Translations under genes and position numbers: made by a program
Origin: a virus
Length of the DNA: 64,000 bases
Reading direction: 5' to 3' (one strand)
IMG/VR virus record: IMGVR_UViG_3300036715_002570
Location: 1-64,000 of that record
In this document: positions 7,305 through 59,583 of the stretch, in pieces
Layout of the letters: each line of letters starts with the position of its first letter
How positions within the stretch are numbered: position 1 is the first letter of the stretch
Notes under the pieces: model-generated
Told to the model about the DNA's origin: nothing
Database searches by the model: none
The model's input: only the letters and a program-made list of their open reading frames with translations

Positions 7305-7854
7305 GATGAAGTTCACAGAAATCACGTCGAGTATCACAGAATCAAAGCAAAGTAAGGCGAGTCGTGTTCAGAAGCTGCTTAACGAACGAGCAGCTCTGAG
7401 GAACGAATACCGCAAGGCTATTGAGGCTGGTGATACCGAGCGCGTTGATACTCTCAACGTCAAACTCAACCGTCTGACAGAGACGATCGAAGCTTTACAG
7501 GAGTCTGCATCTCCCAAAGTCGCAACTCGAGCATACATTGCTCAATTGAAGCGTGACCTAGCTGAATTGCATCAGAATCCGAGTAGTCAGGAGGGATACG
7601 ATGCCCGAGACGAACTACTCGCCAAGATCAAGAAAGCAGAATCGGAACTTGCATCGATGACGGAATCGGGCGATACAGCGCTAGCCTATCAAGCAGCTCG
7701 TCAGCAAGCGGTTGAAATCTTGAAACGGTTGTCTGGCCAAGTTGATACTCTGACAGAACAACACGTCCGTCATGGGAATGACTGGGGCTACGTCAATGCG
7801 ATGCGAGCAACAGTAGCCAAACTGCAGGAAATCAGCGACTCCTTTGGAGATTGA
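7305..7854 (+). CDS. coiled-coil hypothetical protein (MKFTEI N-terminus)
   Basis: ORF directly after previous stop. Confidence 0.55.
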
Positions 7855-8145
7855 TGTTACTGCACGAATTGCAAAATGCCACACCAAGAGCTGGCCGAGC
7901 GAATTGTCAAACGAGGCCAGCGTCAAACCATCAAGCCAGAGCCACTCGGCGATAGCCAACATGGCACTGTAATTTCGCAGCCACACTAACCCAATACCGT
8001 GCTGAATCGGATGCACTGTGACGGGTTCTACGAGGACATTCACCCAGGCAACATGATGGTCTGGCGCTCTCCGTACGGCTTCCAACTGGTGTTCACTGAC
8101 CCGTTTACCTCACACCATTCCGCAGGCGAAGAATCGAGTAGTTGA
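7854..8145 (+). pseudogene. kinase-like fragment
   Basis: Frame-broken; encodes DIHPGNMMV...LVFTDPF. Confidence 0.4.
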
Positions 8146-8247
8146 CTTTTTCGTCACTTCGCATATATACTACGACATCGCTGAACAATTCAGCATCCGA
8201 AAAAGATTGGCGAACCCAGTTGACATCTTCATAAATAGATGTACAGT
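8142..8247 (+). promoter_or_regulatory. tandem sigma70-like promoters of tRNA operon 1
   Basis: TTGACT-18-TATACT (8142-8171) and TTGACA-16-TACAGT (8220-8247). Confidence 0.6.
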
Positions 8248-8284
8248 TCACTAATCGACTGACATTAACGCTCTAAGCAACATC

Positions 8285-8422
8285 ATGACCCATCAACTCC
8301 GACAATCCAGTTTGCAGCTCAGCCAACATTGGCTGGGGATGCTCTCCGTCCGTTCAGAGCTGTGTGGTGATTATAGCTTCGAACAACCCACGACCGCCCT
8401 TTGTGGAGAAACTCTAGCGTAA
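8285..8422 (+). CDS. attenuator leader peptide 1 (45 aa)
   Basis: MTHQLRQSSLQLSQHWLGMLSVRSELCGDYSFEQPTTALCGETLA; 3' codons complementary to terminator arm; weak SD. Confidence 0.75.
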   Translation: MTHQLRQSSLQLSQHWLGMLSVRSELCGDYSFEQPTTALCGETLA

Positions 8423-8444
8423 ACCGCGAAAAGTTCAGATCAAA

Positions 8445-8480
8445 CACAAAGGGCTCTTGAGAAATCAAGGGCCTTTTTTG
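8445..8480 (+). terminator. attenuator terminator 1
   Basis: AAAGGGCTCTTGA-GAAA-TCAAGGGCCTTTTTT. Confidence 0.85.
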
Positions 8481-8536
8481 TTTGCCTTGAGCAAAACAGT
8501 TAACGTCATCCAATTGGCTGAACCTCTGAACTGTCA

Positions 8537-8552
8537 CGATCTTTAACAATTT
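8537..8552 (+). promoter_or_regulatory. rrn-type boxA
   Basis: CGATCTTTAACAATTT vs TGCTCTTTAACAATTT. Confidence 0.7.
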
Positions 8553-8599
8553 GTGTTGTTCCGATAAGCCTAGTGCTTATCGGCAAACAAAAGTTCAAT

Positions 8600-8675
8600 G
8601 GTGGCCATAGTGTAGTGGTCTGCATGAGATGCTGTGAACATCTCGGTACCGGTTCGATCCCGGTTGGACACCCCA
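8600..8675 (+). tRNA. tRNA-His(GTG)
   Basis: Cloverleaf, G-1, CCA encoded. Confidence 0.9.
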
Positions 8676-8721
8676 AGTTGGGTTCAACGTAAATATATGT
8701 TGAACCCAACGGAGAACAGAA

Positions 8722-9180
8722 TTGCCAGCAAAGATCAAGATATGCACGCAGTGTAAAGCTGAAAAGCCACTCACTGATTACCGGAAGGATAGAAGCAGAT
8801 TAGACGGTCGAAACTCACATTGCAACGTGTGCGCTAGGGAGAAACAAAGTATTCGATATCAAGAAGTATATGCAGCGTCCCGATCGATTCGCGACAAAGC
8901 ACTTCGTGATGCGAATAAACAGAGAATAGATGAATACAAATCAAGTGGCTGCGTTCTTTGTCATGAAGACGAAACCAGCTGTCTCGATTTCCATCACCTT
9001 GATGCAGATAAGAAAGAGTTTGGAATTGGCGGGAACACGCATCGCACTTGGTCGTATATTGAGCGCGAGCTTGCTAAGTGTGTTCTTGTTTGCAAAAACT
9101 GCCATACAAAGATACATGCTGGATTGATTGAACTACTTTTGCCAATAAGCATTGGAACTGCGTCAGGAACCGCAGGATAA
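8722..9180 (+). CDS. HNH endonuclease
   Basis: CTQC, LDFHH, CKNCH..IH. Confidence 0.8.
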   Translation: MPAKIKICTQCKAEKPLTDYRKDRSRLDGRNSHCNVCAREKQSIRYQEVYAASRSIRDKALRDANKQRIDEYKSSGCVLCHEDETSCLDFHHLDADKKEFGIGGNTHRTWSYIERELAKCVLVCKNCHTKIHAGLIELLLPISIGTASGTAG

Positions 9181-9249
9181 ACATAACGCCGGACCGCTAA
9201 GAGACAGTCGAGTAGCCTTCAGACTGTGGAGTGCGATAAAGGAATAATT

Positions 9250-9324
9250 CGTCTCGTGGTGTATCAGTGCACACAGTCCGCGAGGGGCTGAGGAGTTGAT
9301 CGTTAAATTCGATCCGAGACGACA
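9250..9324 (+). ncRNA. tRNA-like RNA with non-canonical anticodon and T loops
   Basis: CGTCTCG/CGAGACG acceptor, D, anticodon and T stems all pair. Confidence 0.5.
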
Positions 9325-13732: not shown

Positions 13733-13829
13733 GTCGTTGTAGCTCAATGGTAGAGCGCGAAACTGACGCTTTCGGCGTGAAGTTCCCTTTCAAGGCGGAG
13801 ATGGTGGCTCAATTCCACCCAACAACACA
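13733..13829 (+). tRNA. tRNA-Glu(TTC)-like with hairpin insertion
   Basis: Extra ~25 nt between D arm and CTTTCAA loop. Confidence 0.5.
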
Positions 13830-22056: not shown

Positions 22057-25000
22057 ATGGCCAATCAACAAACAATGAAACTGACCCAAAAAGTGCTTCG
22101 TCATATGGAAGCTATGGCGTCAGGCAATCAAGTCGGTAGCATCTTACTCGCAGGCGACCCAGGCATTGGTAAGACAACAATGATCTCTCTGCTTGCAGCG
22201 TTGCTCGGCATGAAGGCTGTGATCATTGAAATTCCGCACATCACTGAAGAACACTTGATCAACATCCCGTTCTTGGTGTTCAACTCTACGACCGGCGCAA
22301 AGACACACGGTTCCACAAACGTTGACACAAACGTTGACACAAGCAAGATGTCAATGGTTCTGGCTGACTCGAACCTGTTTACTGCACTACAAAGCGCAAA
22401 GGCACTGTCAGATGCAGAGTACTTGACATATATGTCAACAAAGGCTCCCCGTCACGTCCAGATGGTCTATCAACAGATGGGTGGCACTGCTGATAAGATT
22501 CCACCAGCGATTGCCCGTGCACGTAAGTCACACAGCACGATTTTGTTCCTCGACGAATACTACCGTATGACGTCCATGCGTATCCGCAACATCATGCGTG
22601 GTATCCTGAACGGTAACATCGGTATGCACAAGATTCCAAAAAATGTGTACATCATGTACGCATCTAACATGCGCGATCCGCATGCTGGTCTGGAGGAAAT
22701 CCCATCGAATCACCAATTCAACGTTGTTGAATTCAAGCCGCCAACCAAAGACGAATGGTTCATCTATCTCGCATCCACGTATGAGCACCACTCTCATATC
22801 CGCCTGAACGAGACTGTGATCCGTAAGTTTCAGAAGATTCTAAAGGATGAAGACATCAGCTATGATGACGTCAACGTTGGCGTCCGCACATCACCGCGTC
22901 GTTGGGAACAACTGATCACGTACATCAACACGTCGATTCCCGTCAAAGATACGACAGAAGCTCGCGCTCTGCTGACAAACGTCAAGAACAACTTCATCCA
23001 CTACCAAGAGGAAACGCACAGCAATCTCGCCGGCAAGGTGACGAAGGCAGTTGCGGAGCTAATCAAGGAAACGTCTGGTATTGACGTCAATGAAAAGGAT
23101 ACGCTAGAGCCACACGAATGGCGTACGGCTCTAGATCACGCAATCACTCAAATCATTCGTTCTGGTGGCGATCGGAAGCACATCCCCGTTGTTTCCGGCC
23201 CTCCAGGTATCGGTAAAGCTCAGCCACTGTATTCTAAAATCAAGACTCCAACGGGCTGGACCACGATGGGAGAGATCCGCGTTGGTGACGTATTAACTAT
23301 GCCCAACGGAGATAAGGCACCTGTGAGTGCTGTATATCCTCAAGGGAGGAAAGAGATTTTCGAACTGACGTTTGCGGATGGTCGAAAGACGCATGCATGT
23401 GCTGAGCACCTATGGAACATTAAAAAAGACCGTGAAAATAACTGGCAAACCGTTGACACGCATGAAATAGAACGCCTACTGAACACAACGAATCGTTGGG
23501 TGTACGTGCAGCTACCCGACAATACTGCCCCCCCTGTTGATGTTCCAATGGATCCATACTTGTTGGGTGTACTGTTGGGCGATGGTTCAATGACATCCCA
23601 CACAATTAGCCTATCAACTGCCGATACACAGATTCTTAGCAACGTAAATGATCTGCTGTCAGAAGGTTATAGTTTCAGGCACAGTAGCAACTACGATTAT
23701 CGTCTGACTCGAGAGCGTGACTCGTATGAAATTGAACCTACGTGGAAGATGGCAGGAATGTATGAAAACGCGTATGTTCAAAAATTAAGTGCTCTTGGAT
23801 TGCTCGGCAAGAGCAGCCTAGAGAAGTTTATTCCTAATGTATATAAGCAGGGATCGCGCGAACAAATTGAACAACTTCTGGCGGGATTAGTTGATACAGA
23901 CGGATATGTGAACAAACAAGGCGCAATCTCTATCTCTACAAGCAGTCGTCAATTGGCTGAGGATATTCAATACATTGTTCGATCAATTGGTGGTATTGCG
24001 AAGATAGCGACAAAGTATCCAACTTACACTTATCAAGGTGAAAGGAAAATTGGCAGTGTGGCATACACTGTGTCAATTCGCTATCCAACACCTCGCGCAT
24101 TATCTCACCTCGATCGTAAGCTTGCTCGAATCCCCAACCACTATCAGTATAGCGATTTGAACCTTCGCGTAGTGTCTATCGATTCAATCGGGGAGGACGA
24201 AGCACAGTGCATCATGGTTGATCACCCCGAACATCTGTATATCACAGATGACTTTATCGTGACACACAACACATCCCAAGCATGGGAAATCGCCGAAAAG
24301 CACAACCTTCGTTTGATTGAAATTGACGTCAGTGAGTTGTTTGCTGACGACGCTGTCGGTATGCCGCTGCCAGGCGAACGCAACGGCAATCAGATCAAGG
24401 TGCAATTCTCCGCTCCCAAATTGTATAAGCAAATCATGGACATGATTGAGCGTAAGGATAAGGCGTACATTGATGAATTGTCGCAAGACCCTGAGGCGGA
24501 TGCTCAGGCTGAGATTGCCAAGTACAAAAAGCAACCATTTAAGTATCTGATTCTGCTTGACGAATTGAACCGCGTTGACCAGAAGACGTTCAACTCCCTT
24601 CGCCGCGTGATCTTGGAAAAGAACTTTGGTGGTAAGGATGAAGAAACGGGTGAGGAATACAAGCTGCCTAAGTCCGCAATTGTGATTGGTGCTATCAATC
24701 CACACGGTGCTGGTACGGAAACACTGACGCAACACTTCCGGGATGCAATTGACGTGATTCCTGCCAAGGGTTCGTGGGACGCGACAAAGTCGTGGCTGAA
24801 GGGTAAGAAGTTCGAGGGAATCACAGATGACGTCCGTACGGTCGTTGAACAGCTGATGAATGCATTCGCAGATAAGTTTGCCGACAAGAGTGAAACACAC
24901 GGTAAGCACCAGCGTGCGTTCAACCTCGACATCAATGGCATGCCTCTGTACATCTCTCCTCGTGAGTACTCTGACATGCACGCAACTTTGATGCGTGAAA

Positions 25001-25701
25001 TCAATGCACGATTCAAGTACCTACTGGATGACCCCGACATCAAGGAATCGCAGATGCGTCCTGAGTTGGATGAGGCTGTGTATGAAGCGTTTGAAGACTC
25101 GCTGAACATGGTGTTCTACAAGCAGAATGCTGACATGAAGGATGAATTCATGGCTAAGTTGCATTCATGGGTTACGCACCTGCCAGCAACAATGTATAAT
25201 CAGTTGATCAAGAAGACAGCCTCAGGCATTCACGCTCTGTCTAACGTCATGAGCAAGTACTTGGATGGATCAACAGATCTAGCCAAGATGCCCGACGACG
25301 TCCACATCGTTAACGCAAACAACACAATTAACCATGCCCAGTTCATGGAAGAAATCAAGTCGGCACTAACGAACAAGATCGTTGATGACAGCACGGTTCA
25401 GAAGTACATTCTTGATGAAGTACACCCACGCGTTCGGTTGCAGGGTGACGAAATCATTGCCGATGGTCCTGACACCTCCTTGCTAACCAACTTCTTCATG
25501 TCGTTGCTATACACACTGCACTTGCACGAGTACGCACACGACCGTCTGGCAGTCGTTGGTAAGGCACTGTCAACAATGATGTCAGACACACGTAAGCGTC
25601 TGATCAAGGACGGCAAGATCACAGAAGATATTGCCGACGAAGCATCCACGTCTGTTGCTAACCTGCGCTCTGAATTGGTCGACGTAATTGAGGCTCTATA
25701 A
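22057..25701 (+). CDS. tandem AAA+ ATPase (MoxR/dynein-related) with intein
   Basis: Two Walker A (GDPGIGKT, GPPGIGK/T) and two Walker B (LFLDEY, ILLDELNR). Confidence 0.85.
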   Translation: MANQQTMKLTQKVLRHMEAMASGNQVGSILLAGDPGIGKTTMISLLAALLGMKAVIIEIPHITEEHLINIPFLVFNSTTGAKTHGSTNVDTNVDTSKMSMVLADSNLFTALQSAKALSDAEYLTYMSTKAPRHVQMVYQQMGGTADKIPPAIARARKSHSTILFLDEYYRMTSMRIRNIMRGILNGNIGMHKIPKNVYIMYASNMRDPHAGLEEIPSNHQFNVVEFKPPTKDEWFIYLASTYEHHSHIRLNETVIRKFQKILKDEDISYDDVNVGVRTSPRRWEQLITYINTSIPVKDTTEARALLTNVKNNFIHYQEETHSNLAGKVTKAVAELIKETSGIDVNEKDTLEPHEWRTALDHAITQIIRSGGDRKHIPVVSGPPGIGKAQPLYSKIKTPTGWTTMGEIRVGDVLTMPNGDKAPVSAVYPQGRKEIFELTFADGRKTHACAEHLWNIKKDRENNWQTVDTHEIERLLNTTNRWVYVQLPDNTAPPVDVPMDPYLLGVLLGDGSMTSHTISLSTADTQILSNVNDLLSEGYSFRHSSNYDYRLTRERDSYEIEPTWKMAGMYENAYVQKLSALGLLGKSSLEKFIPNVYKQGSREQIEQLLAGLVDTDGYVNKQGAISISTSSRQLAEDIQYIVRSIGGIAKIATKYPTYTYQGERKIGSVAYTVSIRYPTPRALSHLDRKLARIPNHYQYSDLNLRVVSIDSIGEDEAQCIMVDHPEHLYITDDFIVTHNTSQAWEIAEKHNLRLIEIDVSELFADDAVGMPLPGERNGNQIKVQFSAPKLYKQIMDMIERKDKAYIDELSQDPEADAQAEIAKYKKQPFKYLILLDELNRVDQKTFNSLRRVILEKNFGGKDEETGEEYKLPKSAIVIGAINPHGAGTETLTQHFRDAIDVIPAKGSWDATKSWLKGKKFEGITDDVRTVVEQLMNAFADKFADKSETHGKHQRAFNLDINGMPLYISPREYSDMHATLMREINARFKYLLDDPDIKESQMRPELDEAVYEAFEDSLNMVFYKQNADMKDEFMAKLHSWVTHLPATMYNQLIKKTASGIHALSNVMSKYLDGSTDLAKMPDDVHIVNANNTINHAQFMEEIKSALTNKIVDDSTVQKYILDEVHPRVRLQGDEIIADGPDTSLLTNFFMSLLYTLHLHEYAHDRLAVVGKALSTMMSDTRKRLIKDGKITEDIADEASTSVANLRSELVDVIEAL
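23218..24270 (+). mobile_element. intein with LAGLIDADG endonuclease (Ala1, class-3-like)
   Basis: K/AQPLYS...IVTHN/T; LLGVLLGDG and LLAGLVDTDG. Confidence 0.9.
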
Positions 25702-27671
25702 TGAAGTTCTATCGTATCGATGAAGCCCTGGAGCAGCGCCGCTTTGCTCCGGGCGCTGTGAAGTTTTCAAAGTCAGATTTCACAGATCCACACATCGTTG
25801 CCGTAATTCAAGCAATGGCACAGGCACCTGGCGTCACCCCACAGGCGATTGAGGCACAGGTCCAAGCTCGCCTGAACAAGCTGCATACGATGGCAGCCCG
25901 TGCTCCGTTTCTGTATCAAACAATCATCCAGAATGGTGTTGAAAATGAACTGTTTTCAATGTTCTGGAAGATGGACGTTCCAGTTAACGGCCCCAAGTTC
26001 CGCAGCCTAACGTTCCAGCGTCTGCAGCGTACAATTGCCGGTGAACATGATGAATTCTGGCCTCTGCGTAGTTTCATTGAGAAACGGCCACTAACAGCTA
26101 AGTGGGATCTCAATGAAATCCCACCCGGCCAACCAGGCGTAACGACCGCGGCAGCAACCCCAAGTGGTACGTTCATCTTCAACATTCCATTCATGCAGAA
26201 GTTGATGGACTACGCTCACCTGAAACAGGTGAAGCCAAAAGGCCGCAAATACGTATGCAATGGTGGTGACATCCCTGATGAATATGCGTACATCGAGTTC
26301 TTGATCATGCACGAACTGATGCACTACAGCAATGATGACTTCTATTACCAGAAGATCATTCCAAATGCTAACCCCCGAATCATCAACTGGGTTGGCGACT
26401 TCCGCTCAAATTACCTTTTGGTTAAAAGTGGATACGAACAGTTGCCTCTGGGACTTTTCAACGACGGAATCAATTATGACCGCCAAAAGTCATACGTTGA
26501 GATGTACAACATTGTCAAGGCGGAATTTGACAAGCTAAACGCCCAGGAACAAGAAGAGGTTGGTGACAAGCTTGATGAGATGGGTGACGACCATAAGCCT
26601 GGCCAGGAAGAAGGCGCTGAAAGCGACGTCCAACCCGGTGAGGGCGAAGGTGAGGGCGAAGGTGAGGGCGAAGGTGAGGGCGAAGGTGAGGGCGAAGGTG
26701 AGGGCGAAGGTGAGGGCGAAGGTGAGGGCGAAGGTGAAGGAGACGGTGCCGACCCATCCGCAAAGGGCAACAAGAAAGCCCCCACAGGCCGTCCAGGCAC
26801 AATGACCCCAGAACAAATCGATGAGAACGCGCGCCGCATTGCCGGTCAGATGAAAGACGGCAAGGATAAGACCTCTCAAGAAGTTGAGAAAGAAACCAAG
26901 GCCAAGCGTGCTGGAGAAGGATCCGGAGAGAGCTCCGCAAACGGCGCGCCCGGTTCCGGTAATGGCGGTAGCCCGTTAGAGATTGACTATTCTAAGGTCA
27001 AGCCGTCGTTCGACTGGAAGACGCTCGTTAAGCGATTCCTTTCTACTGCAAAGCCGCAGATGGAAGATACGTATGCGAAACCGAACCGTCGAGCTGTTTC
27101 ACAGCTCGACATCGCCCGGCAGCTCGGTGCGGGTGCAATGAAGCCAGGAGAGCGTGTTGGTGCAACAACTGACAGTAAACTGGGCTTCTTGTTTGACGCG
27201 TCTGGCTCAATGGCTGGCGTGATTTCAAAAGTGTTTGCAAACGCTGTCAACTTGTTGAAGACGCCACAGTTCAAGAATGCTACGTCGCTGGTGTTCCGCT
27301 TTAGTGGATCGTACTCAATGTACAAAGTAATGTTTGCTCAGAACAAGGCAGCAAAAATCGCCAGTGTCAAGGATAAAGTTGCAGCTTGGCCTCTAACGCC
27401 GCATGCGGCGTTTAACATGGCAGAGAGTGGTGGCACTGTATTCTCAAACGTGCTCGCTGGTAAGATCATTGAAGCATTGAAGGATAAGTGGAACATCATC
27501 TTTTTCTTGGATAGCGACATTTACACAGGCAACGAGAACCTGATCAACTTCCTGACTGTAATCAAAGCAGCACCAAACCAAGTGTTCGTTGTGTTCGACA
27601 GCGTTCAAACATATCAACAATTCCGCAAGATTAGTGGGATCACTACCCCAAATATCACCCATTTCAGTTGA
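25701..27671 (+). CDS. HEXXH metallopeptidase-like plus vWA-like protein (DUF2201-like), AAA partner
   Basis: HELMH, DASGSM, GGT, DSD. Confidence 0.75.
   Translation: MKFYRIDEALEQRRFAPGAVKFSKSDFTDPHIVAVIQAMAQAPGVTPQAIEAQVQARLNKLHTMAARAPFLYQTIIQNGVENELFSMFWKMDVPVNGPKFRSLTFQRLQRTIAGEHDEFWPLRSFIEKRPLTAKWDLNEIPPGQPGVTTAAATPSGTFIFNIPFMQKLMDYAHLKQVKPKGRKYVCNGGDIPDEYAYIEFLIMHELMHYSNDDFYYQKIIPNANPRIINWVGDFRSNYLLVKSGYEQLPLGLFNDGINYDRQKSYVEMYNIVKAEFDKLNAQEQEEVGDKLDEMGDDHKPGQEEGAESDVQPGEGEGEGEGEGEGEGEGEGEGEGEGEGEGEGEGEGDGADPSAKGNKKAPTGRPGTMTPEQIDENARRIAGQMKDGKDKTSQEVEKETKAKRAGEGSGESSANGAPGSGNGGSPLEIDYSKVKPSFDWKTLVKRFLSTAKPQMEDTYAKPNRRAVSQLDIARQLGAGAMKPGERVGATTDSKLGFLFDASGSMAGVISKVFANAVNLLKTPQFKNATSLVFRFSGSYSMYKVMFAQNKAAKIASVKDKVAAWPLTPHAAFNMAESGGTVFSNVLAGKIIEALKDKWNIIFFLDSDIYTGNENLINFLTVIKAAPNQVFVVFDSVQTYQQFRKISGITTPNITHFS
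26637..26732 (+). repeat. 12-bp tandem repeat GGTGAGGGCGAA x8 encoding a (GE)n linker
   Basis: Eight identical units. Confidence 0.95.
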
Positions 27672-38011: not shown

Positions 38012-38297
38012 GGAAACACCATGTTTCTACTCGGTCTTTTCATCGGTTTCGTTGTCGGTTTTGTGTTTGGTCCCAAGCTGCGGGACGAATACAACTCTGT
38101 TGCGAACAAGTGAACGTAAGTGAGCGGTTTTGTCCGCTCACTTACGTTCACCCTTCATATATACGGTTGTTGAGATGATTGCGGATCGCATTTATTGTTT
38201 CAACAACCGTAACGAGAAGTCAGGCCTCATCAAATTCTGACACAACAGCCAATCGGACAGACCGATTGCGTATCAACTATTGCAAAGGAACTTTGCC

Positions 38298-39764
38298 ATG
38301 CTATCTCTGATCAAGTCTCCCAATTTCATCATGGCCCGCGACAGCTACAAGGCTGGTCACTGGCAGGAAATCCCATCCGACATCAAATACGCCGTGTCGG
38401 CAATCGTCCCCCGCAAGCCAAGCAAACGACTGAACATCAACGAAGTCGTCGCTGCCGGTCTCGCCGTTTGTGCGGAGATCCTCGTGAATACGCGGATCAC
38501 GCATGCGATGATCGACGAAGCGGAAATCGAGGCGAATGAACAGGGCTATGAGTTCAACCGTGCAGGCTGGGAGCGAATCGTTACGGAATGTGACGGCAAG
38601 CTGCCGATCGCGATGTACGGCGTTGAAGAAGGCCGCGTCGTGCACCCGCAGACGCCGATCGCGATGTTCACCAACACCAAGCCTGGCTTTGCTTGGCTGG
38701 CGTCCGACATCGAAACATGGTCTCAGGGGATCATCTGGAAGATGTCGTCTGTCGCCAGCGTGTGCCGTGCTGCTCGTCTGAAGATTCGCGCAGGCATGAT
38801 CAAGTCTGGTGCCGATCTGGCATGGCTGGACTACAAGCTGCATAACTTCGGCGACCGTGCAACGACGCCGGAAGACGCAATTATGGCTGGTATCGCGCAC
38901 GCGATGTTGTTCAACGGGTCCGACTGCCTCCGCGCGAACGGGTACATCAAGACGATCTACCACACGAACGAGGCATACCTGTCCAGCGTCGAAGCGACCG
39001 AGCACAGCACGATGTGCATGAACAGCAACGCCGCTGAGAAGGATGACTTCGGTGCGGCAGAAATGGCTGTCACGCGCTTGGAAGCGGTCGTCAAGCGCGT
39101 CAAGCAAAAGTACATCGGTATTCCGCTGATGAGCGCTGTGATTGACACGTACGACAGTCGTCGTTTCGTGCGCGAATACCTCGGCACTCGCCTGAAGGAC
39201 CGAATTCTCGCTAGCGGTGGCAAGTTCGTCGCTCGTCCGGACAGTGGTGATGTCGCTGTTGAACCTGGCCTCGTTGCCAAAGACTGGGAAGACACTGTCG
39301 GTCTTGCCGGCTACACGTCGACCGGCTACAAGATCCTGAACCCCGCTGTTGGTGTGCTGCAAGGCGACGGCATCCGCTTGAACACGATTGATGCAGTGCA
39401 GGAAGGGTTCATGTCCGCAGGCTACAGTTGGGACAACTTCGTGCTCGGCATGGGTCACGGTACGACGAATGACGTGTCTCGCGACGACTTCAGCTTCAGC
39501 ATGAAGGCAATGGCGTTCAGCCGTGATGGCAAGTCGTGGACCCGCCTGCTCAAGGAACCGAAGACTGACCTCAGTAAGAAGTCGCTGAGCGGCCTAATCC
39601 GCTGCGCAGAGACGGTTGATGGTGATCTCGACGTGATTGACATGACGAACGACCCAGCTGGCTACTTCACGTCTACCCCTGGCTGGCGTCTGTACTCTAA
39701 GGACGGTGAACGGCATTACCTTCAGTCGTTCGACGATGTCATGGCGCGAGCGCGATCGCTGTAA
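38298..39764 (+). CDS. nadV: nicotinamide phosphoribosyltransferase
   Basis: DSYK..H, LHNFG.R, ATEHS, DTYD, RPDSGD, QGDG. Confidence 0.9.
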   Translation: MLSLIKSPNFIMARDSYKAGHWQEIPSDIKYAVSAIVPRKPSKRLNINEVVAAGLAVCAEILVNTRITHAMIDEAEIEANEQGYEFNRAGWERIVTECDGKLPIAMYGVEEGRVVHPQTPIAMFTNTKPGFAWLASDIETWSQGIIWKMSSVASVCRAARLKIRAGMIKSGADLAWLDYKLHNFGDRATTPEDAIMAGIAHAMLFNGSDCLRANGYIKTIYHTNEAYLSSVEATEHSTMCMNSNAAEKDDFGAAEMAVTRLEAVVKRVKQKYIGIPLMSAVIDTYDSRRFVREYLGTRLKDRILASGGKFVARPDSGDVAVEPGLVAKDWEDTVGLAGYTSTGYKILNPAVGVLQGDGIRLNTIDAVQEGFMSAGYSWDNFVLGMGHGTTNDVSRDDFSFSMKAMAFSRDGKSWTRLLKEPKTDLSKKSLSGLIRCAETVDGDLDVIDMTNDPAGYFTSTPGWRLYSKDGERHYLQSFDDVMARARSL

Positions 39765-47702: not shown

Positions 47703-47897
47703 GAACATTCAAAATTACGGTCAAAGCTCGCCGCGCCAAGATCGAATTTGCGCCCGGTATGGGCGTTGGAACTCTGGTGTCCCGGGAGATCAGCTCCCCG
47801 ACAACGCACGTGAGGTTGAGATGGGACTGATGGTTGACAATCTGTGTCAAGAGCTGATTCGAGATGCAATCGAAGTCACGACCGAGGAGGTCACGAA

Positions 47898-48995
47898 ATG
47901 AAGAAGTACCTCGTAGGTGGTGCGGTTCGTGACCTGCTGCTCGGGATCAAGCCGAAGGATCGCGACTGGGTGGTAGTAGGATCCTCTCCTGAGGAGATGC
48001 TCGCACTTGGATACCAGCAGGTAGGAGCATCTTTCCCCGTCTTCATTAAGGATGGTGAAGAATATGCACTGGCGCGTACCGAACGAAAGACGGGCGTTGG
48101 ATACAACGGGTTCGATGTCACGTTCGATCCTTCTGTCACATTGGAGGAGGACCTGATCCGCCGCGACCTGACGATCAACGCGATGGCGCTCGACATCGAT
48201 ACGTACCAACTGATCGATCCGCACGGCGGTCGCAGGGACTTACACAACGGAATCCTTCGCCATACCAGCCTCGCGTTCGCGGAAGATCCCGTCCGTGTTC
48301 TCCGCACAGCTCGGTTCGCTGCTCGGTACCAGTTCTCCGTGGATCCGACAACGATCCGTCTGATGTCCGACGTTGCACATGAACTTGTGCACGTGCCCCA
48401 AGAGCGGATCTGGGCGGAGTTCAAGAAGGGCCTGACGGAAGATACACCTCATCTGATGATGGACGTTCTCAGCCGCTGTGGCGCGTTGTCAACACCTGCG
48501 CTCGAGATCTACAGCCACGCCAATTTGGACATGATCCGGAATCTGTCCCCAACCCATCCAATGCACGTTCGCCTTGGCGCTGTGTTCCGGAACACAGTGG
48601 GTGACGTCAATGCGTGGTCGAAAAAGCTGAACAATGCGAAGATCCCTGCTGCATTGATCAAGATTCTCGTCACGTACCTGCGTGAGTATGACATCCTGTA
48701 CAACTACTGTCTGCAAGATGCGGATACACGCGTTCGGTTGCTTGACCGCCTTCGTGCGTTCTCGGATCCGAACCTGTTGTCACACGTGATGGATTGCATG
48801 ATCAACAACGATCTGATGTACTTCTACGTGTATCGCCCAATCCCGTCGTATCTGACCGGTCAGAAGGCGGCAGCTTTTCGTGATCTCGATACGATTCAAG
48901 CGAACGTTGACAGCGTTGCAATCGCTGCGTCAGTCGATACCAAGTCGATCAAGCAGGCGATTCATGATGCACGCGTTGCGGCATTGAGCAAGTAG
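47898..48995 (+). CDS. cca: tRNA nucleotidyltransferase (CCA-adding enzyme)
   Basis: [40 protein letters not shown]. Confidence 0.92.
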
Positions 48996-54514: not shown

Positions 54515-54677
54515 AGCAATCCTTCTTTCAAGTTATTTATCTGACCCCGTTGACTCAATAGGCTAAGTGACGGATAGTCAACGAACTGATTTCAACATCG
54601 CGATTGCAACTTTTCTTGCAGTTGCCATAAATACCCATACAGACAATCACGTCTACCAAATACAAGAGTTACACGAA

Positions 54678-54758
54678 ATGTTCACCACAACTGTTATCAC
54701 CGTCAAGGTCGTGACAAATGCGATTAAAAATTCGCAGGGGACTCTTCGTACCAATTAA
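54678..54758 (+). CDS. attenuator leader peptide 2 (26 aa)
   Basis: MFTTTVITVKVVTNAIKNSQGTLRTN. Confidence 0.8.
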   Translation: MFTTTVITVKVVTNAIKNSQGTLRTN

Positions 54759-54776
54759 GCATCTGCTAATTAACAC

Positions 54777-54814
54777 AAGAGCCCCGCAGAACTAGTTTCT
54801 CCGGGGCTTTTTTG
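54777..54814 (+). terminator. attenuator terminator 2
   Basis: AAGAGCCCCG...CGGGGCTTTTTT. Confidence 0.85.
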
Positions 54815-54889
54815 TTAGTTTGTCGAAATTGAAACCAGCTCGATTCCGCGCGTCAACATGCGAACCGCGGCAGCATTTCAACCAGATAC

Positions 54890-54905
54890 TGTTCTTTTAC
54901 AATTT
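54890..54905 (+). promoter_or_regulatory. rrn-type boxA
   Basis: TGTTCTTTTACAATTT. Confidence 0.65.
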
Positions 54906-54916
54906 GCGCACGTTTT

Positions 54917-54989
54917 GGGCTTGAAGCTTTAAGGTGAAGCAGCGGACTTTTAATCCGCAGAAGAGGGGTCAGTACCCTCCAGGCCTACA
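54917..54989 (+). tRNA. tRNA-Lys(TTT)
   Basis: GCGGA-CTTTTAA-TCCGC. Confidence 0.85.
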
Positions 54990-55003
54990 AATGTGTCTAT
55001 TGC

Positions 55004-55091
55004 TCCGTCCGGGCTGGCTTGGTGAAGGCCTCTGACTGTTAATCAGAAGGATGCAGAAAATGCATGCGAGGATCGTAACCTCGGGACGGAG
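55004..55091 (+). tRNA. tRNA-Asn(GTT) with long variable arm
   Basis: TCTGA-CTGTTAA-TCAGA, ATGCA/TGCAT arm, G73. Confidence 0.8.
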
Positions 55092-55110
55092 CAATAGACA
55101 CTTAGACAAT

Positions 55111-55186
55111 TCCTCTTTAGCTCAGTTGGTAGAGCGTTGCACTGTTAATGCAAATGTCGTTGGTTCGAACCCAGCAAGAGGAGCCA
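55111..55186 (+). tRNA. tRNA-Asn(GTT)
   Basis: Canonical, CCA. Confidence 0.95.
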
Positions 55187-55191
55187 AATTT

Positions 55192-55265
55192 GGGATGCAA
55201 GCTTTAAGGTGAAGCAACTGGCTCTTACCCAGTAGAACTCGGTTCAATACCGTGGCGTCCTACCA
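55192..55265 (+). tRNA. tRNA-Lys(CTT)
   Basis: ACTGG-CTCTTAC-CCAGT, CCA. Confidence 0.8.
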
Positions 55266-55267
55266 CT

Positions 55268-55340
55268 CTTCCGTTGGTGTAATTGGCAACACAGCTGGCT
55301 TTTACGCAGTCGTTCTCGAATCGTTGCCGAGGCGGAGGAC
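55268..55340 (+). tRNA. tRNA-Lys(TTT)-like, degenerate
   Basis: CTTTTAC loop, atypical T arm. Confidence 0.5.
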
Positions 55341-55629
55341 TTAGACGATTATAGAACAACATAATATCTGGAGACGAAATAGATGATTGGTGTCACGACC
55401 CTCTCGCGTGAAGAACGCGTTAAGCTGAAGAAGGCGCTCGAACGAATCGAGGAAGAAGCAACGAAGACGTACGCGATCACACTAAAGATCGTCGTCAAGG
55501 AAACTCGCAGTGACGACCTTGCAGAACCGGGAAGTGCAGTTGACAGCATTGTTGACGTGCTGCTACCTGGCTCTGAAAGGCTGGTCGTCCTCAACCTGAC
55601 GTTCCCTGACGAAGAATAACAGGACAAAT

Positions 55630-55703
55630 TACCGCGTAGCTCAGAAGTAGAGCAACACTCTTACAAAGTGAAGGTCGAGATTGCAAAATTCTCCGTGGCA
55701 ACA
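55630..55703 (+). tRNA. tRNA-Val(TAC), atypical
   Basis: CACT-CTTACAA-AGTG. Confidence 0.65.
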
Positions 55704-55707
55704 AAAT

Positions 55708-55783
55708 GGTCGCGTAGCTCAATTGGTAGAGCGTTCTCTTGATAGGGGGAATGGTTGTAGGTTCAACTCCTACCGTGGCCACA
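55708..55783 (+). tRNA. tRNA-Ile(GAT)
   Basis: Cloverleaf. Confidence 0.8.
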
Positions 55784-55788
55784 AATAT

Positions 55789-55862
55789 ACCCGCGTAATT
55801 CAGTGGTAGAATGCACGCTTGATAGGCGTGAGGTCGTAGGTTCAAGTCCTACCGTGGGTACA
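55789..55862 (+). tRNA. tRNA-Ile(GAT)
   Basis: CACGC-TTGATAG-GCGTG. Confidence 0.9.
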
Positions 55863-55923
55863 ATGTTTAGGATACGGTACTATACCATATCGACTCATAA
55901 ATAACTTCAGCACAGGAGTTAGC

Positions 55924-56562
55924 ATGCAGTCTATGGAAATTATTCGTCAGGTGGAGATTGAGCGGCTTATTGAGGCATATGCTGAAACAGGGTCAATCGC
56001 AGGTGTGGGTCGAGTGATGGGAATATCTGTTAAGGCTCCATGTGTTCGCAAGCTAATAAAGCAGCGCCTGGCAGCAGCAAGCCCATCATTAATGAAGGAG
56101 CATTCCGCCCGCGGATCGTATAGCATTGAGCAAATAAGAGCTGCAGTAGCGAAATCGATCTGTATGTCAGAAGTGTTGCGAGAAATTGGATTAAGTACAC
56201 ATGGGTCTTGCGCTAATGTAATCAAGCGAATCATGAAAGAACACAACATTCTTTCAGATCACTTTGATCCTGCTTTGGCGCTTCGTAAAGGTAACGCTCG
56301 TAGATGGTCACCAGACGAAGTGTTTATCGAGCACAGCCCAATCCCACGGGCCACTCTGCACACGCATGTTAAACGGCATAACGTAATTGGGACACCGGTG
56401 TGCAGTGAATGTGGAGTTGCAACTACTTACAATCGTAAGCCGATTTCTCTGACCGTTGACCATATAAACGGCGTTAGTGATGATAATCGAATAGAAAATC
56501 TAAGGTGGCTATGTCCAAATTGTCATTCACAGACGAGTACGTATTGTGGGAAGAACAAGTGA
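55924..56562 (+). CDS. HNH endonuclease (paralog of 35582-36223)
   Basis: VDHING.SDDNRIENLRWLCPNCH. Confidence 0.85.
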   Translation: MQSMEIIRQVEIERLIEAYAETGSIAGVGRVMGISVKAPCVRKLIKQRLAAASPSLMKEHSARGSYSIEQIRAAVAKSICMSEVLREIGLSTHGSCANVIKRIMKEHNILSDHFDPALALRKGNARRWSPDEVFIEHSPIPRATLHTHVKRHNVIGTPVCSECGVATTYNRKPISLTVDHINGVSDDNRIENLRWLCPNCHSQTSTYCGKNK

Positions 56563-56590
56563 CGGTGTTTCTTGCAGAGAAGTAAAGAAC

Positions 56591-56665
56591 GGGCCTCTAG
56601 TATAGGGGATATTATGCCGTGCTTGCACCGCAGAGACCTAGGGTTCGATTCCCTTCTCTCCTACA
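56591..56665 (+). tRNA. tRNA-Ala(TGC), degenerate
   Basis: CTTGCAC loop and T arm; broken acceptor. Confidence 0.45.
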
Positions 56666-57110
56666 AATAAAAAAGACATGCACACGATGCAAGCAAGAAA
56701 AGCTTCTACAAGACTTCACACGAGACTCATCCCAAAAAGAAGGACATTATTCTGCTTGTAAATTGTGCAAGCGTTTCACAGCCAGGATTCGTCATAAAGG
56801 TGATAATGTGGCGCAGGCGCGAAACAAGCTAAGAGTACAGCAAACATCGCAGATGATTCGTGATAAAAAGTCTTCAGGATGCATTGTATGTGGTGAGCTT
56901 GAGCCAGTCTGCTTAGATTTACACCACACGGATCCAAGTAAGAAAGACGTTGATCCAAACAAGCTGTGGAACCGTGTGTGGGATAAGTTCATGCAGGAGG
57001 CACAAAAGTGTATTGTCGTGTGTAGTAACTGTCACAAAAAGATTCATGCAGGGATGATCGTCAGCCAGTGTGACGGGACTGCAACAATGTTAAGAGCTGA
57101 TCAAGTGTAA
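56619..57110 (+). CDS. HNH endonuclease (paralog of 8722-9180; start uncertain)
   Basis: CTRC, LDLHH, CSNCH..IH. Confidence 0.75.
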   Translation: MLAPQRPRVRFPSLLQIKKTCTRCKQEKLLQDFTRDSSQKEGHYSACKLCKRFTARIRHKGDNVAQARNKLRVQQTSQMIRDKKSSGCIVCGELEPVCLDLHHTDPSKKDVDPNKLWNRVWDKFMQEAQKCIVVCSNCHKKIHAGMIVSQCDGTATMLRADQV

Positions 57111-57169
57111 GTGGTGACACGCCTCTCTCGTAAGGAGGAGAACGGAGTTCAATTCTCCGGATCAGCACA
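57096..57169 (+). tRNA. tRNA-Thr(CGT)
   Basis: Cloverleaf. Confidence 0.85.
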
Positions 57170-57173
57170 AATT

Positions 57174-57246
57174 GCCCCTATAGTTAAATGGTATAACAGG
57201 ACCTTTGTAACGTTCAGTCCACAGTTCGATTCTGTGTAGGGGCACA
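57174..57246 (+). tRNA. tRNA-Thr(TGT)
   Basis: Cloverleaf. Confidence 0.8.
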
Positions 57247-58080
57247 CACTGCAAACAATGGAGGATGCTATGACACAGCTAAACGCAGAACCAATGGAGT
57301 ACCGCGCAAGTCGGTAAACGGAGTTTCAAACAAGTTCAAACAAGTTCAAACGAATGTCTGAACTTTACAGGCACTTTTCCAAAGACTGGGAGCATGTACT
57401 TGATTACTCTGATCAAGCACTACTCGACTTGTACAACCAAGAATCATACGGTGGCCGCGTAGAGTCCAACAACGGATTCGCTGTCGGTAAGAAATGGTTG
57501 AACGTCTACGTAACAGCATGGAAACAATCGATCAGAGAAGGTACTCTGTTCGTCCATGAACTGTACGAAGACCCAGGTTTCCCACATTGGTGGCTAGATA
57601 GCGTACTGAAGGGTGTGTACGACAATCTAGACGTCTGGTGGCAAGACTACAGCAAGACGAAAGTACATCATGATCTCACAAGCGCTTCATAGCAAGTTTC
57701 TAACAAACACAGACGATACGGGCCGATTTGTTGTGTATTCACAGCGAACCGGTCGTCGGTACTACGTTGAGCCGATCGAAACACAACACACCCCCAAGTG
57801 GGGTTCAGTTGATCCAGCAACGGGTGAACTGATGCACAAGAAAGGCGATGGCAAGTACCGTGGCGGTGTCTCTCCAAAGGAGAGCCTGGTCACAGCTGAA
57901 AACGGGTTCAGCATCATTCATGAGCTTGGTATTGGCGTGAGCCCACACCATGCAATCGATGTGATTGATGCTAAGTATCCAGACAAAGCATAACAGGCCA
58001 ATGTACAAACAGTGTCCCGGGTTCATTGTTATGCTGTAGTAGGGTTTCCTCACTTTGTCCCACCTATACAAAGTGATACG

Positions 58081-58155
58081 GGGGCGGGGTGTTTACCGGA
58101 TAGCATATTACCCTTGCAAGGTTTTGGATCGAGTTCGAGTCTCGACGCCTCCACA
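58081..58155 (+). tRNA. tRNA-Ala(TGC)
   Basis: GGGGCG/CGCCTCC-type acceptor, CTTGCAA loop. Confidence 0.7.
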
Positions 58156-58448
58156 AACGCTGTTGATTTACCCTGTTGTAATCGAGAAGATTATGTCACA
58201 AATGGGAATAGTCAGGGGCGAGAAATGGAAAAAGCACTCGTGGTATTCGGTTGCACGATAGTTGGCGGTGGTGCTGGCTATCTAGTCAGCCCCGATGGAA
58301 CTGCCGTGACAATCGGAAGTGCAGTCGGTTTTCTGATTGGCTGCATGTTGGTCAGTGGCAGCGGCGGCGACGGCGGAAGTGCAGCGATCGTTGACCTGAT
58401 TGACGACCTCACTGACGGCTTCGCAACCAGTCACCACTGACAATTTTT

Positions 58449-58512
58449 GGGGATTAGTACAGCTGGAAAAACGCTAGCCTTGCACGCTTGAGTCAGGAGT
58501 TCGATCCTCCAC
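58449..58512 (+). pseudogene. tRNA-Ala(TGC), 3' truncated
   Basis: 5' half and T arm present; 3' acceptor strand missing. Confidence 0.55.
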
Positions 58513-58541
58513 CAGCTAGAAGTCAAACAAAGACAAATAAT

Positions 58542-58615
58542 AGCTCCATAGCTCAATGGTAGAGCACTGCGTTGACATCGCAGATACGAAGGTTCGATTC
58601 CTTCTGGAGCTACCA
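58542..58615 (+). tRNA. tRNA-Val(GAC)
   Basis: Cloverleaf, CCA. Confidence 0.9.
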
Positions 58616-59141
58616 ATTAAAGGAACATGATGATTTACGTCGCAGCACCACACAGCGACCCTGATCTTGCGATCAAGGACGCTAGGGTGCGCGAGTTCTA
58701 CGAGTTTGAGACCACCAAATATAGTCAGATGCCTGATGATTGGGTCTACTGGCAACAGTACAGTGAGCAAATGCTGAGCAAGTGTGACGGGATGGTCTTG
58801 CTGCTGCTAGAAGGCTGGGATAAGTCGACGGGCGTCCTCGCAGAACTCCGTACTGCCGAGACAACGGAATCCCATCCTCGTGACGGATGTCCGCTGGAAG
58901 CAGTTGTACGTTCCCGGACAGGGAATCGAATCATTCGTCATCAAACTGATAACCACTAAATAAGTGGTCCAGTTAAGGGAGCCCTTATGCGTCTGCAAGA
59001 CCTTTCATTCATCACAGAACAACAACTCCGTGAGCAAGCTGTTGCCCAACAGGCTCATGCTTTGCTAGAATCTGCAACTCCTGAGGAACTGATTTTGTCG
59101 GAACCTCGCAGCGCAGAAGACGTAATTGCGGAGTTGTACAA

Positions 59142-59495
59142 GTGATCGAAGTTCGCACGTGCATCTTGTTTCGTAAAACCTCGGTACAGCACTCACGTGA
59201 TCCGCGAGTGCGCGACAAGATCGTAGACTTCATCCGATTCAAGTCAGAGCACCCCCTTGAGTTGTATGGCTCGAAGGATCGTGCGTTTGCTAATGAAGGC
59301 AACTTGCGTGGTTTCATCCACGCAGGCCTAACGTTTGACGTTTCGATCGTGTACAAGATTGGGATGGTCGGTGGTAAGCGGACGTTGGATCTGTACGGCG
59401 TGTTCTCCCACGACGAGCTTGGTACAGGCCAGCCTCGTAACATCAATCGTCAACGTTCTGCTGGTGAAAAGCTGCGGAACCAAGAGATGGAGTAA
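59142..59495 (+). CDS. RelE/YafQ-like protein
   Basis: D..F..G.LRGF.HA.L..D.SIVY...HDEL pattern. Confidence 0.55.
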   Translation: MIEVRTCILFRKTSVQHSRDPRVRDKIVDFIRFKSEHPLELYGSKDRAFANEGNLRGFIHAGLTFDVSIVYKIGMVGGKRTLDLYGVFSHDELGTGQPRNINRQRSAGEKLRNQEME

Positions 59496-59510
59496 CGCTC
59501 CATCTTTCAT

Positions 59511-59583
59511 GCTCTGTTAGTATAGTGGGATAATAACTCCTTGGTACGGAGTAGACACAGGTTCAATTCCTGTACAGAGCACA
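59511..59583 (+). tRNA. tRNA-Thr(GGT)
   Basis: ACTCC-TTGGTAC-GGAGT. Confidence 0.9.

Follow-up and report, generated by a model that had tools for sequence, protein, structure and literature searches.

A probable leader-peptide transcription attenuator at the head of a jumbo phage tRNA operon

The first tRNA operon of an uncultivated jumbo phage probably begins with a ribosome-mediated (leader-peptide) transcription attenuator, and the phage probably makes the tRNAs of this operon only when ribosomes struggle with the matching codons. We favor this reading because the conservation of the whole module, the coding-type evolution of its short open reading frame (ORF), the frozen tail of that ORF, the predicted order of RNA folding, and folding with a ribosome mask all fit it.

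In the mechanism that we propose, transcripts would begin at either of two promoters (P1 and P2) and would contain an ORF of 45 codons, the first 35 of which specify almost only the 14 amino acids of the downstream tRNAs and would sample nearly every isoacceptor. With a ribosome stalled at one of these sensor codons, or with no ribosome present, nucleotides 8396–8405 would pair with 8445–8454 upon emergence of the latter. Polymerase would then continue via boxA into the tRNA genes because this antiterminator pairing would withhold the G-C-rich base of the terminator stem. Smooth decoding into the tail of the ORF (codons 36–45), or a ribosome at the stop codon, would leave 8396–8405 covered or unreachable; the hairpin at 8441–8484 would form, and transcription would stop at its U tract. 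The net outcome would be negative feedback in which the operon's own or host tRNAs switch it off and the loss of any of them switches it on; if this reading holds, the products of the operon would feed back on their own transcription via the ribosome.

Genome context and the conserved module

The window covers the opening 64 kb of an IMG/VR record that is 150,677 bp long and has a completeness estimate of 64%. It contains more than 44 tRNA genes on the plus strand, with genes for HNH and other endonucleases in between. The tRNAs of array 1 (8601 to approximately 16472) carry H, S, L, P, R, Q, F, D, Y, C, E, M, W, and G; these 14 amino acids are referred to below as set 1, and K, N, I, T, A, and V as set 2. 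The set 2 tRNAs are encoded by an array at 54917–59582, and a smaller, mixed tRNA group is located at approximately 28–36 kb of the window. Other genes in the window include a MoxR-like AAA ATPase gene (22057–25701), split by a LAGLIDADG (intein-type) homing endonuclease domain and followed by a CobT/VWA-like gene (25701–27671), and, further along, genes for NAMPT (38280–39764) and a CCA-adding enzyme (47844–48995). The closest isolate found was the Ralstonia jumbo phage RsoM2USA, with 46% identity on one CobT-like protein.

Searches of isolated phages with the DNA of 7800–9300 and with the leader peptide gave no match. Scans of IMG/VR with the upstream protein, the terminator DNA, a protein alignment, a DNA pattern of the ORF, and an alignment of the leader returned no relative, and none was found in bacterial and archaeal genomes. 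The protein encoded just upstream, at 7306–7854, does have homologues at 41–46% identity, and their alignment led to a pair of loci from metagenomes: L002, which is a contig of 5.4 kb, and L003, a 16-kb locus examined within a 252,843-bp contig. In each of them the module is complete and its order unchanged (ORF, 10-mer, its partner, terminator, boxA, tRNA-His). P1, a block containing the motif CATAAATA, the start codon, the ORF, its TAA stop codon, both 10-mers, the terminator base, boxA, the hairpin after it, and tRNA-His are kept in these loci; the upstream genes, the 5' UTR, the spacer after the stop codon, and the top of the terminator stem have diverged among the three genomes. Coordinates are collected in Table 1.

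Table 1. Features of the leader region and of the second leader; positions are those of the window unless a locus is named
Feature	Position	Strand	Remarks
Promoter P1, sigma-70-like (TTGACT, 18 nt, TATACT)	8142–8171	+	Predicted; hexamers and spacing shared by L002 and L003
Promoter P2 (TTGACA, 16 nt, TACAGT)	8220–8247	+	Predicted; conserved block; overlaps CATAAATA at 8230–8237
Leader ORF, 45 codons plus TAA	8285–8422	+	Homologous ORFs at L002:3775–3912 and L003:9909–10049
Sensor part, codons 2–35	8288–8389	+	All 14 array 1 amino acids; T2 and V22 are the sole outsiders
Hairpin H0 inside the ORF	8314–8342	+	RNAalifold; two pairs survive changes on both sides
Hairpin H1 inside the ORF	8352–8384	+	Core invariant in three genomes, synonymous sites included
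Antiterminator 5' strand, GCCCTTTGTG (codons 38–41)	8396–8405	+	Predicted; sequence invariant in L002 and L003
Leader stop codon, TAA	8420–8422	+	Conserved
Intrinsic terminator	8441–8484	+	Predicted; core 8448–8477, U tract from 8474, tail TTTTTTGTTTG
Antiterminator 3' strand, CACAAAGGGC, base of the terminator 5' arm	8445–8454	+	Predicted; sequence invariant in L002 and L003
rrn-type boxA	8540–8553	+	Motif; conserved in L002 and L003
Hairpin after boxA, 9 bp	8561–8583	+	Repeat finder; in L003, G-C replaces an A-T pair
tRNA-His(GUG), first gene of array 1	8601–8675	+	First tRNA in L003 too
Attenuator 2 (predicted)	54678–54820	+	CATAAATA motif, short ORF, antiterminator strand, terminator, boxA, tRNAs

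The gene block upstream of the leader is eroded in the window. Only the C-terminal 37 residues (7999–8110; 46% identity) are left of a 387-residue protein that is intact at L003:8349–9512, where it has a faint kinase-like PHROG match, and a small gene at L003:9516–9758, present in L002 too, is missing.

On the plus strand, the module runs P1, P2, ORF, terminator, boxA, hairpin, and tRNA-His. The CATAAATA motif has 18 copies on this strand compared with approximately two expected (an excess of about 9-fold), mostly located 20–45 nt before gene starts, and one of them precedes the second leader of the same phage, leader 2 (54626–54633). The motif resembles a promoter specific to the phage and akin to the T4 late TATAAATA, and in both tRNA leaders it sits beside a sigma-70-like promoter. 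The boxA motif occurs at two sites in the 150-kb record, upstream of tRNA-His and, with one mismatch, after leader 2 at 54893. Its sequence conforms to the boxA consensus on the transcript, and it is a putative site of NusB/NusE binding. The order of boxA and then a hairpin, as in lambda nut, recurs in the window (8540–8583), L002 (3989–4033), and L003 (10124–10169). Relative to the two other loci, the window carries 41 extra bases (approximately 8497–8537) between the terminator and boxA, including a palindrome at 8506–8521.

No plus-strand sigma-70-like promoter was predicted between the terminator and tRNA-His in the window, L002, or L003, and in the latter two this gap is just 60–70 nt long and is occupied by boxA and the hairpin. 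Together with the position of boxA downstream, this indicates that transcription of the tRNAs must pass the terminator. An alternative is that the terminator just ends the upstream gene block and that the array has its own, unrecognized phage promoter downstream of 8485; phage-specific promoters may differ from sigma-70 sites, and the window does carry its extra bases there. The two conserved promoters are, however, located between the upstream genes and the ORF and not past the terminator, the gap in L002 and L003 is already taken up, and CATAAATA is absent between the terminator and tRNA-His. We consider a separate promoter for the array very unlikely.

Coding evidence and codon set of the leader ORF

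The leader ORF sits between P1/P2 and tRNA-His (8601), that is, between promoter and first regulated gene. It has 45 codons in L002 and 46 in L003, the difference being a one-codon indel that keeps the frame. A word-based search for related peptides gave six, to which an exhaustive profile search added 16 candidates, 42–82 residues long; 20 of these 22 were retained after a duplicate of L002 and one repetitive match were dropped. With the window, L002, and L003, this makes 23 homologues, called as ORFs of 42–48 codons that share their start and end pattern. Between the window and L002, codons 19–35 differ by six synonymous changes and one non-synonymous change (dS 0.97, dN 0.025; dN/dS approximately 0.03), and from codon 19 onward, seven of 10 differences fall at third positions. 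This coding-type evolution suggests that the ORF is translated. Its Shine-Dalgarno site, described as weak in the preliminary description, is indeed so: pairing with the anti-SD is worth −0.5 kcal/mol, no better than random 17-mers (median, −2.2) and far from 71 long ORFs of the phage (−5.4). The site is weak in the relatives too (−3.0 kcal/mol in L002 and −3.3 kcal/mol in L003 against a gene median of −5.4).

The region could alternatively be a structured non-coding leader or small RNA of approximately 230 nt, from P2 to the terminator, in which the open frame is incidental. The weak Shine-Dalgarno site would be unsurprising in such an RNA, the fold has a z-score of −3.4, and hairpins H0, with its compensatory changes, and H1 are conserved. 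A frame that survives a 3-nt indel, third-position substitutions that predominate from codon 19, and homologues called as ORFs in all 23 cases are not what an incidental frame would be expected to leave, and an Rfam search gave no family match; we therefore give the non-coding explanation very little weight. Within the translated leader that we prefer, the compensatory changes in H0 indicate that RNA structure, besides the codon set, shapes the variable N-terminal half. H1 is a possible pause hairpin.

The sensor part of the ORF, codons 2–35, is unusual in its composition. The synonymous codons that had been listed for the leader (Ser TCC/AGT/AGC/TCA, Leu CTC/TTG/CTG, Arg CGA/CGT, and Gln CAA/CAG) are all present. 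Among 3004 frames in the record, counted stop-to-stop with at least 30 codons, the leader ORF is the only one with a stretch that covers all 14 set 1 amino acids with one outsider at most. Across the 23 homologues, set 2 residues make up 33 of 773 sensor residues (4.3%) compared with 108 of 237 tail residues (45.6%); K and I do not occur among the 773 at all, and many of these homologues share less than 50% identity. All 14 set 1 amino acids are retained by 22 of the 23. By hand count in the alignment, one of approximately 32 sensor replacements among the eight closest homologues is to set 2, compared with 27% under a mutational null. The sensor prefers R over K, L/M/F over I/V/A, S over T, and Q/D over N, a split that mirrors the tRNA arrays and is not physico-chemical.

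The match extends to anticodons. Under strict wobble rules, array 1 anticodons read 25 of 34 sensor codons in the window (P = 0.003) and 33 of 35 in L003 (P = 2e-7); the sensor codons sample 16 of 18 distinct array 1 anticodons in the window and 19 of 20 in L003. Only three of the 10 tail codons are read in this way. The regulatory codons thus match the products of the regulated genes both in amino acid set and in anticodons. Five Leu codons (CTC and CTG) of the window leader are without a reader in their own array 1; array 1 of L003 holds Leu(CAG) and Leu(GAG).

Base composition was rejected as the source of the codon set. The four A-starting codons of the sensor are all AGY or ATG, which are, besides AGR, the sole set 1 options among A-starting codons, and by our own count one of six G-starting sensor codons encodes Val or Ala. 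Array 1 also contains atypical Val(GAC)-like tRNA genes (window 13733–13827; L003:11010–11079), one of which scores 52 bits against the Rfam tRNA model and has an extra arm of 27 nt, and one of which, in L003, has an anticodon loop of 6 nt; these could bring the conserved GTC/GTT Val codon of the leader into the set. Given the atypical form of the genes and the absence of Val22 from six of the 23 homologues, this is a tentative idea.

Conservation of codons 21–35 exceeds what retaining single-copy residues requires. The peptide or the RNA is under some further constraint here; H1 accounts for part of it, and the nascent peptide is another candidate. The strength of this conservation, the low dN/dS, and the recurrence across the 23 homologues of a W, two Cys, and a D-Y..F-E..P pattern would also suit a small phage protein of independent function, encoded ahead of an ordinary leaky terminator, with the tRNAs expressed by read-through and the 10-nt complement irrelevant. 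Pfam and PHROG searches gave no family for such a protein, and it would leave unaccounted for a sensor that lacks K and I and almost lacks N, A, and T yet makes free use of R, L, M, F, S, Q, and D, as well as the fit of this split to the tRNA arrays and the match of codons to anticodons. We consider it an unlikely explanation, and further evidence that bears on it is given below.

Terminator, antiterminator, and predicted effect of ribosome position

The preliminary description held that codons 38–41 contain an exact 10-bp complement of the 5' arm of a U-tailed terminator. Direct reading and a repeat finder agree: the strand that starts at the first base of codon 38 (8396) and the strand at 8445–8454 are 10 nt long, 100% complementary, and 39 nt apart, and the latter does belong to the 5' arm of a U-tailed hairpin with a 13-pair core stem (8448–8460/8465–8477). 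The terminator hairpin folds at about −24 kcal/mol (−24.2 to −24.6; z-score, −6.6), and those of L002 and L003 fold at −23.9 and −25.6 kcal/mol, with compensated changes (covariation) in the upper stem. The spacer from stop codon to terminator varies in sequence, and its length is 21–22 nt in all three genomes.

A complement of this length is rare by chance. When the terminator was held fixed and the 186 nt upstream were dinucleotide-shuffled, seven of 5000 shuffles (0.14%) gave a perfect complement to the 5' arm of at least 10 nt. Among 16 terminator-like hairpins of the 150-kb record, listed by a simple in-house scan, the complement is 10 nt long here and 4–7 nt in the others. Covariation in homologues had been proposed as a check of the pairing, and it yielded none at the antiterminator: both strands are invariant in the window, L002, and L003, so the pairing is backed by conservation and not by covariation. 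The 5' strand is additionally constrained by coding, and the Ala-Leu-Cys that it encodes is retained in 18 of the 23 homologues. Natural leader variants in these codons include Leu to Pro (P0011 and P0041) and Cys to Arg (P0014 and P0033), and in one further homologue (P0026), the tail is replaced.

Synonymous changes in tail codons 36–45 number zero compared with L002 and 0.5 compared with L003, while non-synonymous changes number about 2–4.5. Synonymous sites adjoining the tail have a dS of 0.5–1.0 and differ at 20–55%. Because synonymous sites are frozen in the tail while non-synonymous changes occur, a constraint at the RNA level is indicated. If the ORF encoded a protein with a separate function, the lack of covariation at the antiterminator would be no surprise, but neither the frozen synonymous sites nor a complement seen in so few shuffles would be accounted for.

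Folding predictions are consistent with alternative structures on the attenuator model. In minimum-energy folds of nascent RNA, all 10 antiterminator pairs are present from the emergence of 8454 until the 3' arm of the terminator exits; once that arm is out, the terminator supersedes the antiterminator, and the same holds in L002 and L003. The predicted folds of the three genomes thus contain an antiterminator and a terminator that share a strand and are mutually exclusive. The antiterminator module folds at −20.6 kcal/mol compared with about −24 for the terminator, and the overall balance at equilibrium favors the terminator state by 7.6 kcal/mol; the antiterminator must therefore act as a kinetic trap, and the switch would be a kinetic one like that of classical attenuators. 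Six loop-proximal pairs of the terminator stay unblocked by the antiterminator and could seed strand displacement. This remaining 6-pair top, which includes one G-U pair, is probably too weak and too distant from the U tract to terminate by itself.

Constrained folding, also proposed in the preliminary description, was carried out with a 31-nt ribosome mask, the footprint size being taken from textbook values, and the result fits an attenuator. The antiterminator helix persists with the A site at codons 10 to 33 but disappears with it at codons 35, 37, and 40 and at the stop codon, which supports the claim that an upstream stall would leave 8396–8405 free. The switch border at codons 33–35 coincides with the boundary between the set 1 part and the tail, in line with the suggestion that the antiterminator accounts for the departure of the tail from the 14 amino acids. 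In these models, hungry codons would thus free the antiterminator, and a ribosome at the end of the ORF would block it. The related claim that a ribosome at the stop codon covers 8396–8405 stands only in its effect: the helix is lost, but under textbook footprint geometry a ribosome with the stop codon in the A site would cover approximately 8402–8432 and hence only the last 1–4 nt of the strand. Full cover is modeled while codons ~36–43 are decoded.

The same geometry bears on whether the nascent peptide could arrest the ribosome at a fixed place, as with TnaC or SecM, so that arrest rather than codon hunger would set terminator use. Residue-level conservation of codons 21–35 does end at an invariant Pro right before the tail, and the weak ribosome-binding site hints that translation here is out of the ordinary. 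A stall at Pro35 would, however, cover the 10-mer and favor constitutive termination, and the codon-set restriction in the variable N-terminal half would be unaccounted for; no known arrest motif was recognizable on inspection. Peptide arrest is, in our assessment, an improbable basis for the switch.

A trp-type 1:2 hairpin was rejected as part of the ribosome-mediated attenuator. No anti-antiterminator is conserved, and the sole local partner of the antiterminator strand (8388–8393) is weak and not conserved. Naked RNA is predicted to fold into the antiterminator first, so without a ribosome, the predicted default is read-through. This default, combined with the weak ribosome-binding site, makes it questionable how frequently the terminator is used. 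An 11-nt perfect complement also exists between the terminator tail (8476–8486) and a stretch just before tRNA-His (8582–8592). It was rejected as an extra switch; its downstream arm is missing in L002 and shortened in L003, and it is therefore probably due to chance or specific to this lineage.

A second leader and comparison with known systems

The set 2 array is preceded by a leader of similar design. Like leader 1, attenuator 2 combines CATAAATA, a putative antiterminator 5' strand in the last codons of a short ORF, a terminator, boxA, and tRNAs. In masked folding, its helix disappears from codon 19 onward, one codon past the end of its set 2 run at codon 18; here too, the ribosome-masking border is the codon-set border. 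Unlike leader 1, leader 2 has only 26 codons, 16 of which are consecutive K/N/V/I/A/T codons, much as in thrL or ilvL. Homology between the two leaders was rejected, with none detectable and shared motifs only in the alignment. A run of 16 set 2 codons ahead of the set 2 array is a further observation that an independent function of the leader 1 peptide would leave unaccounted for.

Taken as a pair, the complementary 14- and 6-amino-acid leaders might form an isoacceptor-by-isoacceptor decoding sensor that induces tRNA supply when host tRNA is depleted or cleaved, and they might be the first tRNA genes found under leader-peptide attenuation; we advance this broader idea tentatively, as one that may well prove wrong. 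If true, it would describe an inducible, self-limiting counter-measure, for example against anticodon nucleases or phage-induced host shut-off, in a clade of uncultivated jumbo phages. The attenuator itself, if it acts as proposed, would provide a direct and testable answer to two questions: what regulates the large tRNA sets of phages, and whether these sets respond when host tRNAs are lost. The 23 leader homologues, three of them with DNA, offer a natural case in which many codons are sampled once or a few times instead of one being sampled repeatedly.

Leader-peptide attenuation is a textbook mechanism for amino acid biosynthesis. The thr, ilvGMEDA, ilvBN, trp, his, leu, and pheA attenuators resemble the phage element in having a promoter and a short ORF enriched in the pertinent codons before a U-tailed terminator that precedes the first gene; as in the folds predicted here, antiterminator and terminator share one strand in these enterobacterial systems, and the position of the ribosome picks the fold. 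By analogy, the phage element would work like the multivalent thr and ilv attenuators. It differs in that the enterobacterial attenuators control biosynthetic enzymes, whereas the phage element would control tRNAs, and in that their leaders contain runs of one to three amino acids, whereas the phage leader covers 14, most of them by between one and a few codons. The trp and his types also have an anti-antiterminator; the phage element has no conserved one, and its predicted default without translation is read-through. A 1:2 hairpin is typical of the trp and his types, and the general attenuation mechanism works without it. The phage leader has no sequence or Rfam similarity to the enterobacterial attenuators: the Rfam His, Thr, Leu, Trp, and Phe leaders and the T-box gave no match even at E values up to 10, where the listing held only terminator look-alikes far below gathering scores.

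Other systems share single aspects with the module. In E. coli, the attenuator of the pheST operon, with its pheM leader, places a component of the translation apparatus under leader-peptide attenuation via ribosome stalling; it is bacterial, acts on a synthetase gene, and has a Phe-only leader, whereas the phage element is viral and precedes tRNA genes. T-box riboswitches likewise sense tRNA status and choose between terminator and antiterminator before translation-related genes, but they bind uncharged tRNA directly and have no ORF, which the phage element does. With rrn leaders, the module shares tandem promoters and boxA, which agrees with the E. coli rrn core at every position of CTTTAACAATTT. 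The rrn leaders lack a leader peptide and a terminator before boxA, both of which the phage module has, and the phage hairpin comes after boxA and not before it. A full-text literature search returned no report of leader-peptide attenuation for tRNA genes or a phage tRNA array. Compared with known attenuators, what sets the phage element apart is its putative tRNA target, the breadth of its codon sample, and the location of the antiterminator 5' strand, which is within the last codons of the ORF in the phage and after the stop codon in the enterobacterial attenuators.
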